Shown here in pieces: positions 34,336 to 47,490 of a stretch of 64,000 nucleotides of DNA. The position numbers and the translations under genes are program-made. How positions within the stretch are numbered: the first letter of the stretch is position 1; each line of letters begins with the position of its first letter. Origin of the DNA: Escherichia coli (lineage in GTDB: Bacteria > Pseudomonadota > Gammaproteobacteria > Enterobacterales > Enterobacteriaceae); the NCBI RefSeq assembly GCF_003018255.1, contig NZ_CP027440.1; one strand, given 5' to 3'. The notes beneath the pieces are model-generated. The model ran no database searches. It was not told the DNA's origin and saw only the letters and a list, made by a program, of their open reading frames with translations.

Positions 34336-34422
34336 TGGTGCGAGGGGGGGGACTTGAACCCCCACGTCCGTAAGGACACTAACACCTGAAGCTAGCGCGT
34401 CTACCAATTCCGCCACCTTCGC
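34336..34422 (-). tRNA. leuV: tRNA-Leu (anticodon CAG), third gene of the leuQPV operon
   Basis: Reverse complement reads GCGAAGGTGGCGGAATTGGTAGACGCGCTAGCTTCAGGTGTTAGTGTCCTTACGGACGTGGGGGTTCAAGTCCCCCCCCTCGCACCA (87 nt, encoded CCA). Confidence 0.95.
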
Positions 34423-34456
34423 ACAGTCATCTTACTTTTTTTGATATTGCCTCGTT

Positions 34457-34543
34457 TGGTGCGAGGGGGGGGACTTGAACCCCCACGTCCGTAAGAACAC
34501 TAACACCTGAAGCTAGCGCGTCTACCAATTCCGCCACCTTCGC
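34457..34543 (-). tRNA. leuP: tRNA-Leu (anticodon CAG), middle copy; variable-arm C-to-T variant relative to the flanking copies
   Basis: Same 87-nt sequence except plus-strand A at 34496 (tRNA sense GTGTTCTTAC instead of GTGTCCTTAC). Confidence 0.95.
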
Positions 34544-34571
34544 CCAGTGCGAGCAATATCAACGTGGTTTT

Positions 34572-34658
34572 TGGTGCGAGGGGGGGGACTTGAACCCCCA
34601 CGTCCGTAAGGACACTAACACCTGAAGCTAGCGCGTCTACCAATTCCGCCACCTTCGC
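34572..34658 (-). tRNA. leuQ: tRNA-Leu (anticodon CAG), promoter-proximal copy
   Basis: Identical 87-nt tRNA-Leu sequence. Confidence 0.95.
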
Positions 34659-41674: not shown

Positions 41675-42450
41675 TTTGCCGTTTTATCGACACCCACTGC
41701 CATTTTGATTTCCCGCCTTTTAGTGGTGATGAAGAGGCCAGCCTGCAACGCGCGGCACAAGCGGGCGTAGGCAAGATCATTGTTCCGGCGACAGAGGCGG
41801 AAAATTTTGCCCGCGTGCAGGCGTTAGCGGAAAAATATCAACCGCTGTATGCCGCATTGGGCTTGCATCCTGGTATGTTGAAAAAACATAGCGATGTGTC
41901 TCTTGATCAGCTACAGCAGGCGCTGGAAAGGCGTCCGGCGAAGGTGGTGGCGGTGGGGGAGATCGGTCTGGATCTCTTCGGCGACGATCCGCAATTTGAG
42001 AGGCAGCAGTGGTTACTCGACGAACAACTGAAACTGGCGAAACGCTACGATCTGCCGGTGATCCTGCATTCACGGCGCACACACGACAAACTGGCGATGC
42101 ATCTTAAACGCCACGATTTGCCACGCACTGGCGTGGTTCACGGTTTTTCCGGCAGCCTGCAACAGGCCGAAAGGTTTGTACTGCTGGGCTACAAAATCGG
42201 CGTAGGCGGTACTATCACCTATCCACGCGCCAGTAAAACCCGCGATGTCATCGCAAAATTACCGCTGGCATCGTTGTTGCTGGAAACCGACGCGCCGGAT
42301 ATGCCGCTCAACGGCTTTCAGGGGCAGCCTAACCGCCCGGAACAGGCTGCGCGGGTGTTTGACGTACTTTGCGAGTTACGCCCGGAACCAGAAGATGAGA
42401 TTGCCGAAGTGTTGCTAAATAATACGTATACGTTGTTTAACGTGCCGTAG
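41671..42450 (+). CDS. yjjV: TatD-family metal-dependent hydrolase/DNase YjjV
   Basis: (M)ICRFIDTHCHFDFPPF... TatD motifs; TTG start overlapping the yjjU stop. Confidence 0.85.
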   Translation: MICRFIDTHCHFDFPPFSGDEEASLQRAAQAGVGKIIVPATEAENFARVQALAEKYQPLYAALGLHPGMLKKHSDVSLDQLQQALERRPAKVVAVGEIGLDLFGDDPQFERQQWLLDEQLKLAKRYDLPVILHSRRTHDKLAMHLKRHDLPRTGVVHGFSGSLQQAERFVLLGYKIGVGGTITYPRASKTRDVIAKLPLASLLLETDAPDMPLNGFQGQPNRPEQAARVFDVLCELRPEPEDEIAEVLLNNTYTLFNVP

Positions 42451-42667
42451 GCCGGATAAGGCGTTCACGCCGCATCCGGCAGTTGGCGCACAATGCCTGA
42501 TGCGACGCTTGACGCGTCTTATCATGCCTACAAGTCTGTGCCGAACCGTAGGCCGGATAAGGCGTTCACGCCGCATCCGGCAGCTGGCGCACAATGCCTG
42601 ATGCGACGCTTGACGCATCTTATCATGCCTACAGGTCTGTGCCGATCCGTAGGCCGTATCCGGCATG
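42447..42667. repeat. BIME-type tandem array: two ~100-bp units (each carrying two REP palindromes) plus a partial third unit
   Basis: Units 42447-42547 and 42548-42645 are near-identical (GTAGGCCGGATAAGGCGTTCACGCCGCATCCGGCAG...TGCCTGATGCGACGCTTGACGC...) followed by GTAGGCCGTATCCGGCATG. Confidence 0.65.
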
Positions 42668-43531
42668 TCACAAATATAGCGCCGGAAATATTAACCGGCT
42701 CACCCCGCGCTCCCATAACGCATCAGCCAGTTGTTCCACATCCTCCGGCGTGGCGCTCGGCCAGCTTTGCGCCTCGCCATACACGCCGTGGGCATGAAAC
42801 GCGTTCAGGCGTACCGGAACATCGCCAAGTCCCTTGATTAACGCCGCCAGTTCTTCGATGTGTTGCAAATAATCCACCTGGCCAGGGATTACCAGCAAAC
42901 GCAGTTCCGCCAGCTTACCGCGCTCTGCCAGCAAACAGATGCTGCGCTTGATCTGCTGATTATCGCGTCCGGTTAATTGCTGATGACATTCGCTCCCCCA
43001 CGCTTTGAGATCGAGCATTGCGCCGTCGCACACCGGAAGCAATTTTTCCCAGCCGGTTTCGCTCAACATGCCATTACTGTCCACCAGACAGGTGAGGTGG
43101 CGCAGTTGCGGATCGTTTTTGATAGCAGTAAACAGCGCCACCACAAACGGTAGCTGGGTCGTGGCTTCGCCGCCGCTTACCGTTATCCCTTCGATAAACA
43201 GCACTGCTTTGCGGATATGGCTAAGCACCTCATCCACGCTCATGGACTGCGCCATTGGCGTGGCATGTTGCGGACACATCTTCAGGCAGGTATCACATTG
43301 CTCGCAGACCACAGCGTTCCACACCACTTTGCCGTCGACAATCTGCAACGCCTGATGCGGACACTGCGGCACGCACTCTCCGCAATCATTACAGCGCCCC
43401 ATCGTCCACGGATTGTGACAGTTTTTGCAGCGCAGATTGCAGCCCTGCAAAAACAGAGCCAGACGACTGCCTGGCCCGTCAACGCAGGAGAAGGGGATAA
43501 TCTTACTGACTAAAGCGCATCTGCTGTTCAT
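42668..43531 (-). CDS. yjjW: Glycyl-radical-enzyme activating enzyme (radical SAM) YjjW
   Basis: CxxxCxxC cluster motif ([12 protein letters not shown]) plus additional Cys-rich ferredoxin-like motifs; 287 aa. Confidence 0.85.
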
Positions 43532-45053
43532 GGCTTATCACGCGCGGCTGGCGTTCCAGAATACGAGTGTTGCGTGCGGCTTCTTCTCCCAGCCAGGTGG
43601 TGTTGGTGCGTGAACCTTCGGCGCGATATTTTTCTAAATCCGACAAACGCACCATATAACCGGTAACGCGAACCAGATCGTTACCGCTGACATTGGCGGT
43701 AAATTCACGCATTCCGGCTTTAAAGGCACCGAGGCAAAGCTGTACCAGCGCCTGCGGATTACGTTTGATGGTTTCGTCGAGCGTCAGAATGTCGCTGATG
43801 CCGGAATAATAATAAGCATGATGCGGGGCGACAGTTTGCAGATGGGTAATCGGATCTGGCTCATCACCATACGGCAAGCGTGCGCCAGGCGTGGTGCCGA
43901 TATCGGAACTGATCCCCGACTGTGCGTGTAGCATGGCGCGTTTTTGCCAGCCATATTTCACGGGGGTATTGGCGACAAACTCCGCCAGTTGTGCGCTGAT
44001 GCGATAACCCACTTCATTTGCGGCGGCTTCTTTACCGTAGCGCGCGGCAATCCCTTCTTTCTCACACAGCAAGTTAACTGCTTCCGCCAATCCGTACATG
44101 CCAAACATTGGCACAAAACGTTCAGGGTTAATCAGCCCTTCTTTCACCAGGAAGCTATTCTCAAAGAAGTGTGATTGTTGATAGAGGAATTCACACCGCG
44201 CATCGATGATGGCGATCTGCTGCTGGCAGTAGTGCGGTAGAGTGCGTGTAAAGAAGTCATCCAGCGATTCACTGCGCTCGGCAATGGCTTTCAGGTTAAG
44301 GCGTACCAGCGTGCTGCCACCACCCGCCAGCGGCAGTGAGTTGTAACAGCTCACAATCCCGTAGCCCCCTTTTGTGAAAATTTTATCATGCACCGGACCG
44401 TTGGCGATGTGCGGTTTGCTACATTCACAGAGGTTCTTCGCCACTTCCAGCAGTAGGTCATCAGGGGTGATTTCAGGATCGTAGATAAAGGTCAGGTTCG
44501 GTGAAACCTGCTTCAACTCTGCGTCTGCACGTAAGATCGCGCGGGTAATGGGCGAATCAGACGGGCCGATATTGGCGTGCATAAAGGCGTCTGGCAGGGT
44601 TCTGTCGAGGTAACGCCAGAAACGTTTTATTCGAATATCGATCTCGTCTTGTGTTAGAATTCTAACATACGGTTGCAACAACGCATCCAGTTGCCCCAGG
44701 TAGACCGGCATCGATGTGACCGATGGTACGTGGTGGTAAAGAATGGTCAGCAGAGAGAGTGCATCATCAAGATCTTTCGCGCCTTCCAGCTCCAGCCATT
44801 CGGAACCGTTCGCCAGAAAACGGGCGTAATCGGGTAAGACATAGCGCGGTTTGTACGGCGCATGACCTTCAAACATATCGCAGATTACACCTTCATCCAG
44901 CGCGCGGCGGGCTTCGGCAGGAAGCTGTGGGTAAGGCAGATTGTTTTCTGCTTCCAGTGCCAGAAAATGGCGCTTCTGCTCCGGGCTAAGTACCGGGCTG
45001 GTGACAATTTGCTGGCAACGTTGTTGCAGTGCATTTTCATGAGAAGTGGGCAT
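43503..45053 (-). CDS. yjjI: Glycyl radical enzyme-like protein YjjI (DUF3029)
   Basis: 516 aa with C-terminal glycyl-radical-like motif (VRVTGYMV); overlaps yjjW by 29 nt. Confidence 0.85.
44373..44388. promoter_or_regulatory. Candidate DeoR operator O_E (degenerate)
   Basis: TGTGAAAATTTTATCA, a degenerate palindrome 279 bp upstream of O1, matching the reported O_E-O1 spacing. Confidence 0.4.
44652..44667. promoter_or_regulatory. DeoR operator O1 (deoP1), embedded in the yjjI coding sequence
   Basis: Perfect palindrome TGTTAGAATTCTAACA; 599 bp upstream of O2, matching the reported deoP1-deoP2 spacing. Confidence 0.6.
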
Positions 45054-45250
45054 CTTCTTTTCCTTTTATGCCGAAGGTGATGCGCCATTGTAAGAAGTTT
45101 CGTGATGTTCACTTTGATCCTGATGCGTTTGCCACCACTGACGCATTCATTTGAAAGTGAATTATTTGAACCAGATCGCATTACAGTGATGCAAACTTGT
45201 AAGTAGATTTCCTTAATTGTGATGTATATCGAAGTGTGTTGCGGAGTAGA

Positions 45251-45266
45251 TGTTAGAATACTAACA
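45251..45266. promoter_or_regulatory. DeoR operator O2 (deoP2; CRP/CytR-dependent promoter region lies in 45150-45240)
   Basis: TGTTAGAATACTAACA 45 nt upstream of the deoC ATG; upstream TGTGA-like CRP half-sites at about 45158 and 45218. Confidence 0.6.
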
Positions 45267-45310
45267 AACTCGCAAGGTGAATTTTATTGGCGACAAGCCA
45301 GGAGAATGAA

Positions 45311-46090
45311 ATGACTGATCTGAAAGCAAGCAGCCTGCGTGCACTGAAATTGATGGACCTGACCACCCTGAATGACGACGACACCGACGAGAAAGTAATT
45401 GCTCTGTGTCATCAGGCCAAAACTCCGGTCGGCAATACCGCCGCTATCTGTATCTATCCTCGCTTTATCCCAATTGCTCGCAAAACGCTGAAAGAGCAGG
45501 GTACCCCGGAAATCCGTATCGCTACGGTAACCAACTTCCCACACGGTAACGACGACATCGAAATCGCGCTGGCAGAAACCCGTGCGGCAATCGCCTACGG
45601 TGCTGATGAAGTTGACGTTGTGTTCCCGTACCGCGCGCTGATGGCGGGTAACGAGCAGGTTGGTTTTGACCTGGTGAAAGCCTGTAAAGAGGCTTGCGCG
45701 GCAGCGAATGTACTGCTGAAAGTGATCATCGAAACCGGCGAACTAAAAGACGAAGCGCTGATCCGTAAAGCGTCTGAAATCTCCATCAAAGCGGGTGCGG
45801 ACTTCATCAAAACCTCTACCGGTAAAGTGGCTGTGAACGCGACGCCGGAAAGCGCGCGCATCATGATGGAAGTGATCCGTGATATGGGCGTAGAAAAAAC
45901 CGTTGGTTTCAAACCGGCGGGCGGCGTGCGTACTGCGGAAGATGCGCAGAAATATCTCGCCATCGCCGATGAACTGTTCGGTGCTGACTGGGCTGATGCG
46001 CGTCACTACCGCTTTGGTGCTTCCAGCCTGCTGGCAAGCCTGCTGAAAGCTCTGGGCCACGGCGACGGTAAGAGCGCCAGCAGCTACTAA
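45311..46090 (+). CDS. deoC: Deoxyribose-phosphate aldolase
   Basis: [33 protein letters not shown]... 259 aa; AGGAG Shine-Dalgarno. Confidence 0.95.
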
Positions 46091-46167
46091 GGCTTGATTT
46101 GCCGGATGATGCAGCGATGCTCATCCGGTTCCCCGATTACCTCGTCTCTTTTCCACGGGAGGTTACC

Positions 46168-47490
46168 TTGTTTCTCGCACAAGAAATTATTCGTAAAAAA
46201 CGTGATGGTCATGCGCTGAGCGATGAAGAAATTCGTTTCTTTATCAACGGTATTCGCGACAACACTATCTCCGAAGGGCAGATTGCCGCCCTCGCGATGA
46301 CCATTTTCTTCCACGATATGACAATGCCTGAGCGTGTCTCGCTGACCATGGCTATGCGAGATTCAGGAACCGTTCTCGACTGGAAAAGCCTGCATCTGAA
46401 TGGCCCGATTGTTGATAAACACTCGACCGGCGGCGTCGGCGATGTCACTTCGCTGATGTTGGGGCCGATGGTCGCAGCCTGCGGCGGCTATATTCCGATG
46501 ATCTCCGGTCGCGGCCTCGGTCATACTGGCGGTACGCTCGACAAACTGGAATCCATCCCTGGCTTCGACATTTTCCCGGATGACAACCGTTTCCGCGAAA
46601 TTATTAAAGACGTCGGCGTGGCGATTATCGGCCAGACCAGCTCACTGGCTCCGGCGGATAAACGTTTCTACGCGACCCGTGATATTACCGCAACCGTGGA
46701 CTCCATCCCGCTGATCACTGCCTCTATTCTGGCGAAGAAACTGGCGGAAGGTCTGGACGCGCTGGTGATGGACGTGAAAGTAGGTAGCGGCGCGTTTATG
46801 CCGACCTACGAACTCTCTGAAGCCCTTGCCGAAGCGATTGTTGGCGTGGCTAACGGCGCTGGCGTGCGCACCACCGCGCTGCTCACCGATATGAATCAGG
46901 TACTGGCCTCCAGTGCAGGTAACGCGGTTGAAGTTCGTGAAGCGGTGCAGTTCCTGACGGGTGAATATCGTAACCCGCGTCTGTTTGATGTCACGATGGC
47001 ACTGTGCGTGGAGATGCTGATCTCCGGCAAACTGGCGAAAAATGACGCCGAAGCGCGCGCGAAATTGCAGGCGGTGCTGGACAACGGTAAAGCGGCAGAA
47101 GTCTTTGGTCGTATGGTCGCGGCACAAAAAGGCCCGACCGACTTCGTTGAGAACTACGCGAAGTATCTGCCGACAGCGATGCTGACGAAAGCAGTCTATG
47201 CTGATACCGAAGGGTTTGTCAGTGAAATGGATACCCGCGCACTGGGGATGGCAGTGGTTGCAATGGGCGGCGGACGCCGTCAGGCATCTGACACCATCGA
47301 TTACAGCGTCGGCTTTACTGATATGGCGCGTCTGGGCGACCAGGTAGACGGTCAGCGTCCGCTGGCAGTTATCCACGCGAAAGACGAAAACAGCTGGCAG
47401 GAAGCGGCGAAAGCGGTGAAAGCGGCAATTAAACTTGCCGATAAAGCACCGGAAAGCACACCAACTGTCTATCGCCGTATCAGCGAATAA
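46168..47490 (+). CDS. deoA: Thymidine phosphorylase
   Basis: (M)[31 protein letters not shown]... 440 aa; TTG start at 46168 preceded by GGGAGG. Confidence 0.9.

Follow-up and report, generated by a model that had tools for sequence, protein, structure and literature searches.

The DNA upstream of deoC in the window (the whole 64-kb stretch of Escherichia coli DNA that was analyzed) is almost certainly the canonical control region of deoCABD, in which DeoR would bridge the operators OE, O1, and O2 and thereby repress the promoters deoP1 and deoP2. Two of these operators lie inside the codons of the divergent gene yjjI, where their conservation points strongly to selection on the DNA itself. 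The operators, their spacing, and their overlap with yjjI are already known, and to this extent the analysis has recovered a textbook system anew. The layout itself is not new: it can be read from the annotation of strain K-12, and Choe et al. (2019) placed a deoCABD promoter "in an upstream gene, yjjI." The sequence features, geometry, orthology, and purifying selection described below were computed here, while DeoR binding and looping are taken from the literature.

In the mechanism that this literature supports, DeoR, a multimeric repressor, would bind three 16-bp palindromic operators: O2 on the −10 region of deoP2, O1 on the −10 region of deoP1 599 bp upstream, and OE 279 bp farther. DNA loops held between the operators by DeoR would lock both promoters, the inducer deoxyribose-5-phosphate would release DeoR, and CRP and CytR would add control at deoP2. 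Published accounts place deoP1 and deoP2 599 bp from each other under the lock of a single DeoR loop, with O1 and O2 separated by ~600 bp and OE lying ~300 bp farther upstream. They also describe electron microscopy of loops between all three sites, an estimate of ~72% looping in vivo, and a natural DeoR looping range of up to ~900 bp. Because yjjI is divergent from deoC and starts only 257 bp away from it, deoP1, O1, and OE fall within the coding sequence of yjjI. Coordinates are collected in Table 1.

TABLE 1 Features of the yjjW-yjjI/deoC region (positions in the window; a period marks an unstranded site)
Feature	Position	Strand	Description
yjjW, glycyl-radical activase	42668..43531	-	TIGR04041, 399.5 bits; overlaps the yjjI 3' end by 29 nt
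yjjI, YjjI-family glycyl radical enzyme	43503..45053	-	516 codons, ATG start, intact open reading frame
OE, distal DeoR operator	44373-44388	.	TGTGAAAATTTTATCA, 4 mismatches to TGTTAGAAWWCTAACA
deoP1 core promoter block	44612..44669	+	Inside yjjI codons 129-148; near-continuous conservation
O1, DeoR operator	44652-44667	.	TGTTAGAATTCTAACA, perfect palindrome
Predicted yjjI promoter	45087..45127	-	Between O1 and O2; invariant blocks in 12-species alignment
deoP2 upstream control region	45165..45233	+	CRP-CytR-CRP layout, conserved blocks
O2, DeoR operator	45251-45266	.	TGTTAGAATACTAACA, differs from the perfect site at one central base
deoC, first gene of deoCABD	45311..46090	+	Neighbor divergent from yjjI

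RESULTS

Three operator sequences stand 599 and 279 bp apart upstream of deoC

We defined the DeoR operator as the 16-bp palindrome TGTTAGAA.TTCTAACA, a consensus reportedly drawn from earlier work on DeoR operators. The original prediction had named three 16-mers in this region, and all three are present exactly where it put them. The consensus fits O1 perfectly and also accommodates O2, whose single differing central base falls inside the W positions, so that both qualify as perfect sites. OE retains TGTnAnAA in both halves despite its mismatches, which leave its affinity unreadable from sequence. Measured from start to start, O1 and O2 are 599 bp apart and OE and O1 are 279 bp apart, and 44 nt separate the end of O2 from the deoC ATG. 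These spacings had been predicted to equal those in the literature. For 599 bp the papers agree; for OE they give only the approximate upstream distance quoted above, and the exact figure of 279 bp is said to derive from early studies of the operator. A literature search for 279 bp (or 878 bp) in connection with DeoR returned nothing relevant, and a search for genome-wide DeoR binding data (ChIP-exo, SELEX, or DAP-seq) covering the deo region found none.

The exact sequence TGTTAGAAWWCTAACA gives three strand-matches in the window, compared with none in 100 dinucleotide-preserving shuffles. When up to 4 mismatches are allowed, the 64 kb contain 10 positions that qualify (~1.6e-4 per position), the three deo sites among them. 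That a degenerate site should fall at exactly −279 by chance is very unlikely (probability, ~1e-4). Elsewhere in the window, three tandem tRNA-Leu(CAG) genes form a leuVPQ-like cluster (34336-34658); operator-like matches with 3 to 4 mismatches at 34369, 34490, and 34605 arise because these genes share the segment CGTAAGGACACTAACA / CGTAAGAACACTAACA.

O1 and OE lie within genuine yjjI codons

YjjI matches TIGR04040 with 786.8 bits (cut-off, 498.3), profile positions 1-497 aligning with residues 11-504. This full-length match to the YjjI family (TIGR04040 / PF11230) is accompanied by a C-terminal RVxG motif and by an adjoining radical-SAM activase gene, and R462 and G465 of the glycyl-radical motif RVTGY are invariant in the family alignment. 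O1 occupies codons 129-134 (TAT GTT AGA ATT CTA ACA) and OE codons 222-227 (CAT GAT AAA ATT TTC ACA), bearing out the expectation that both would fall within the first 230 codons. The broader claim that the deo control region and yjjI share DNA holds as well, since deoP1, O1, and OE are all inside the coding sequence. A yjjI start downstream of 44373 would place the operators outside the gene. The start does not lie there, because the family profile and the orthologues from 80 species cover the N terminus, together spanning residues 1-516, and because codons 1-230 evolve as coding sequence, with a synonymous difference of 0.446 and an amino-acid difference of 0.147, resembling the remainder of the gene.

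The locus is orthologous to yjjW-yjjI / deoCABD of K-12, in which the operators, the 599- and 279-bp spacings, the 257-bp intergenic region, and the positions within yjjI are identical. In K-12 MG1655, yjjW is followed by yjjI (b4380) at 4615515-4617065 on the minus strand and deoC begins at 4617323; the two YjjI proteins are 99.6% identical. Counting from the annotated start of yjjI puts the K-12 operators at 4617263-4617278 (O2), 4616664-4616679 (O1), and 4616385-4616400 (OE). We found no structural difference from K-12, although the window comes from a non-K-12 E. coli lineage; it is 99.9% identical to strain DETEC-S792 and 95-99% identical to most genomes. A 1.3-kb region was matched in 5423 of 5426 complete E. 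coli genomes at 95-99.9% identity, and the matches were always annotated as yjjI (YjjI family glycine radical enzyme) beside deoC.

Two further observations concern the neighborhood of the gene. Two copies of naRNA4 (CssrE, a REP-type nucleoid-associated RNA) lie between yjjV and yjjW at 42450-42528 and 42551-42629, both on the plus strand and above the Rfam gathering score. A 574-aa protein (P0004) encoded on a 2.9-kb contig combines Pfam matches to YjjI (PF11230) and to a DeoC-type aldolase (PF01791); over 91% of the query, its identity to YjjI is 100%. An error of gene calling or assembly across the divergent pair is the probable origin of this protein.

Promoter elements on both strands

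Upstream of deoC, O1 and O2 each overlap a −10 region, as expected of tandem promoters, and OE lies farther upstream. The extended −10 element TGtTAGAAT is contained in both O1 and O2. At deoP1 its hexamer lies at 44655-44660; at deoP2, where O2 overlaps the extended −10, TAGAAT lies at 45254-45259. The near-continuous nucleotide conservation of the deoP1 block takes in third codon positions, and yjjI codons 136-145 within it have a synonymous diversity of 0.177. Transcription from deoP1 would be expected to start near 44667, set 599 bp upstream of the deoP2 start. The predicted leader, of 644 nt, would cross yjjI codons 1-129 and the yjjI promoter in the antisense direction. A search of 42000-47000 against Rfam yielded no RNA family for this leader or for the strand opposite yjjI.

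In the known arrangement at deoP2, two CRP sites ~53 bp apart flank a CytR site upstream of the −10 region. The window matches this arrangement: a distal CRP core, TTTGA-N6-TCGCA (45165-45180), and a proximal core, TGTGA-N6-TCGAA (45218-45233), have centers 53 bp apart, which correspond to −93.5 and −40.5 if deoP2 starts near 45266. The TGCAA-containing region between them we take to be the CytR site, from the known arrangement of deoP2. The CRP, CytR, and O2 blocks are conserved in a 12-species intergenic alignment. CRP ChIP-seq in enterotoxigenic E. coli (ETEC) placed one site between yjjI and deoC and another inside yjjI; the proximal CRP site, TGTGATGTATATCGAA, is identical to the first of these. 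The counterpart of the intra-yjjI peak of ETEC H10407 is TGTGACCGATGGTACG at 44715-44730, one base different. No sign of selective constraint was seen at 44715-44730, where synonymous diversity is 0.55-0.60, and the nearness of deoP1, or looping, may account for the intra-yjjI peak better than a selected site would.

On the yjjI strand, a −10-like TACAAT (45092 to 45087; ATTGTA on the plus strand) and the element TTTGATCC (45113-45120) are both invariant in 12 species, and the latter contains the FNR-type half-site TTGAT (45114-45118). These elements suggest an FNR-dependent yjjI promoter with a predicted start near 45080, a reading in keeping with the FNR-activated expression of yjjI and with an FNR ChIP peak that has been mapped to the start of the gene.

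A simple sigma-70 scan called none of deoP1, deoP2, and the yjjI promoter. The scan is uninformative for the deo promoters because both are extended −10 promoters with a poor −35. Its sole sigma-70-like match lies on the minus strand at 44380-44407 and uses OE as an extended −10 (TGaTAAAAT). The O1 palindrome (44652-44667) also reads TGtTAGAAT on the yjjI strand. Since the DeoR half-site doubles as an extended −10 element, sense-strand transcription starts inside yjjI are conceivable.

Intragenic operators are conserved where yjjI adjoins deoC

We scanned one genome per species and recovered 80 yjjI loci, from Escherichia to Proteus. In 75 of these loci, each from a different species of Enterobacteriaceae or Hafniaceae, yjjI and deoC are divergent neighbors; the codon alignment comprised 78 sequences. 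The O1 16-mer is present at yjjI nucleotide +386 with 0-2 mismatches in all 75 deoC-adjoining loci, including those of Hafnia and Edwardsiella. O2 is found with 0-3 mismatches in 71 of the 75, and two Edwardsiella loci carry a 4-mismatch site. The O1-O2 spacing ranges from 567 to 675 bp, and the OE-O1 distance is exactly 279 bp, retained even in Hafnia and Edwardsiella.

Pairwise synonymous difference, 0.449 across the gene, falls to 0.04 at O1 and to 0.004 at OE, where codons 222-228 hardly vary. Among 511 six-codon windows in yjjI, the six with the least synonymous diversity are all at OE or O1, with OE the lowest in the entire gene, and the conserved nucleotide block at OE extends over ~44369-44390. 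In the operator codons the amino-acid difference (0.09-0.10) exceeds the synonymous difference, opposite to the remaining gene. Two other stretches of low diversity were seen. The next-lowest synonymous diversity after the operators, ~0.10, belongs to codons 295-300 (FFENSF; 44154-44171), and codons 507-516 owe their low diversity to the 29 nt that the end of yjjI shares with the start of yjjW.

These data bear on two other readings, in which the OE-like site arose by chance or an error in the yjjI start makes intergenic sites look intragenic. It is true that OE carries four mismatches and that sites as degenerate as this are scattered at 10 positions through the window. The match nevertheless stands precisely where it was expected, in the six-codon window with the least diversity, at a distance that even Hafnia and Edwardsiella preserve, and within a reading frame whose N terminus is accounted for as described above. 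The diversity rank of the window, the TIGR04040 match, and the coding-type evolution together rule out chance and mis-annotation, to which we assign a negligible probability.

Loci that lack deoC provide a contrast. In Proteus, yjjI adjoins smp-serB without deoC, and the O1 codons vary freely (GTG GGT GAG CTC ACC and others). No operator-like sites were found at these codons in Proteus, Providencia, Moellerella, or four further homologues whose yjjI does not adjoin deoC. Another four yjjI homologues, more distant, are also without a deoC neighbor. The O1 and OE stretches prove hypervariable and indel-prone when yjjI is aligned with family members of 33-57% identity; one variable segment follows the LLxPFV motif, and the other lies between the ANxx and YGIV motifs.

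A different reading of the conservation is that it reflects needs of the YjjI protein or the yjjI mRNA, such as a rare-codon pause or an mRNA hairpin, and not DeoR. The O1 palindrome could indeed form an RNA hairpin, and two rare codons lie within it: AGA131 is one of only two AGA codons among 33 for Arg, and CTA133 is one of four CTA codons among 57 for Leu. A requirement of the protein or mRNA, however, is hard to reconcile with stretches that differ in both sequence and length across the YjjI family and with codons that drift in the scanned yjjI genes that do not adjoin deoC. Residue 131, moreover, may be R (AGA), K (AAA), or G (GGA), each of which leaves the operator nearly intact, and the frozen coding sequence equals the operator consensus of the noncoding site O2. 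The contrast with Proteus and other Morganellaceae effectively refutes the protein or mRNA explanation, which we regard as highly improbable.

We therefore favor operator-based conservation: because synonymous sites are frozen and the scanned yjjI genes without a neighboring deoC have no such operators, the comparison argues strongly that O1 and OE are kept by selection at the DNA level. The operators appear to have been placed where YjjI tolerates arbitrary residues, and operator DNA would dictate both codon choice and amino acids (VRILT and HDKIFTK) in segments that resemble surface loops. At O1, conservation for operator function is not separable from conservation for the −10 function of deoP1.

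In Proteus (L079 to L081, ~950-2730), serB and smp precede yjjI; in E. coli, serB/smp lie just beyond deoCABD-yjjJ-lplA. The presence of serB/smp beside yjjI in Proteus thus indicates that the neighborhood is syntenic and that the deo block is missing at that site. Either the block was inserted in an ancestor of Enterobacteriaceae/Hafniaceae, or it was lost or moved in Morganellaceae.

Possible coupling of yjjI to DeoR

Compatible with the role of the operators in deoCABD repression is a further proposal, that they also regulate yjjI-yjjW and make yjjI a de facto member of the DeoR regulon. This could happen in three ways: DeoR sitting on O1 and OE, ~+420 and ~+700 relative to the predicted yjjI start, might form a roadblock; the yjjI promoter might be shut off inside a loop between O1 and O2 or between OE and O2; or deoP1, once induced, could be transcribed antisense through the first 129 codons of yjjI and through its promoter. 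The geometry makes such coupling plausible, with the predicted yjjI promoter inside the O1-O2 interval and O1 and OE inside the yjjI transcription unit. A weak hint comes from gene order, in that yjjI-yjjW is found beside nucleoside genes in differing arrangements. In Enterobacteriaceae and Hafniaceae the neighbor is the divergent deoCABD; in Moellerella (L082, 2647-3921) and one other genome (L086, 3681-4931), yjjI-yjjW follows, at 70-80 bp, a nupC-family transporter gene of the same orientation; and in Edwardsiella (L075, 5447-6847), a nupC-like gene is convergent with yjjW and just downstream of it.

Against this, our literature search did not link yjjI to DeoR. The control reported for yjjI consists of FNR activation, co-expression with nitrate/nitrite genes, and HU dependence; an FNR ChIP peak has been placed at the yjjI start, and in a hupA mutant the expression of yjjI and yjjW is down to 0.03-0.05. 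Nor is the association with nucleoside genes general among distant homologues, being absent from the eight other yjjI contexts that we examined (Proteus, Providencia, and six more distant homologues). The sign of any coupling is also ambiguous, since a loop would co-repress the two units and induction of deoP1 would interfere with yjjI. On balance we consider regulation of yjjI by the intragenic operators unlikely.

A more far-reaching version would tie yjjI-yjjW to (deoxy)nucleoside catabolism: DeoR loops or roadblocks, together with antisense transcription from deoP1, would gate the FNR-dependent yjjI promoter, and the orphan enzyme would act in anaerobic nucleoside or deoxyribose metabolism. 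The divergent yjjI-deoC unit with its shared DNA in 75 species and the independent nupC-yjjI-yjjW arrangements in Moellerella-like genomes speak for this idea, which we nonetheless judge to be decidedly improbable and offer as speculation.

DISCUSSION

Secondary operators within coding sequences are familiar from other loop-forming systems. An auxiliary operator, lacO2, lies within lacZ, and galOI lies within galE; as at deo, each loops with a promoter-proximal operator. In lac and gal, however, the intragenic operator sits in the first gene of the regulated operon itself, whereas at deo a whole promoter and two operators sit in another, oppositely oriented gene that is not a known DeoR target. 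For a loop acting on both of two divergent units, the best precedent is araO2-araI, whose repression loop spans the divergent araBAD/araC promoter region, with araO2 in the transcribed region of araC. The likeness is partial: araO2 lies in the araC leader and not in codons, unlike O1 and OE in yjjI, and araC encodes the looping protein itself.

Taken alone, finding a textbook system of long-range repression where it is known to be matters little. What is added is comparative evidence, which makes the locus a clean natural case of a regulatory code overriding a coding code. Two YjjI loops and their rare codons appear to have been fixed across two bacterial families by the DNA requirement of a repressor, and OE, the weakest-looking of the sites, is the most strongly conserved. 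If DeoR control of yjjI were true, it would provide the first functional lead for an uncharacterized glycyl radical enzyme.
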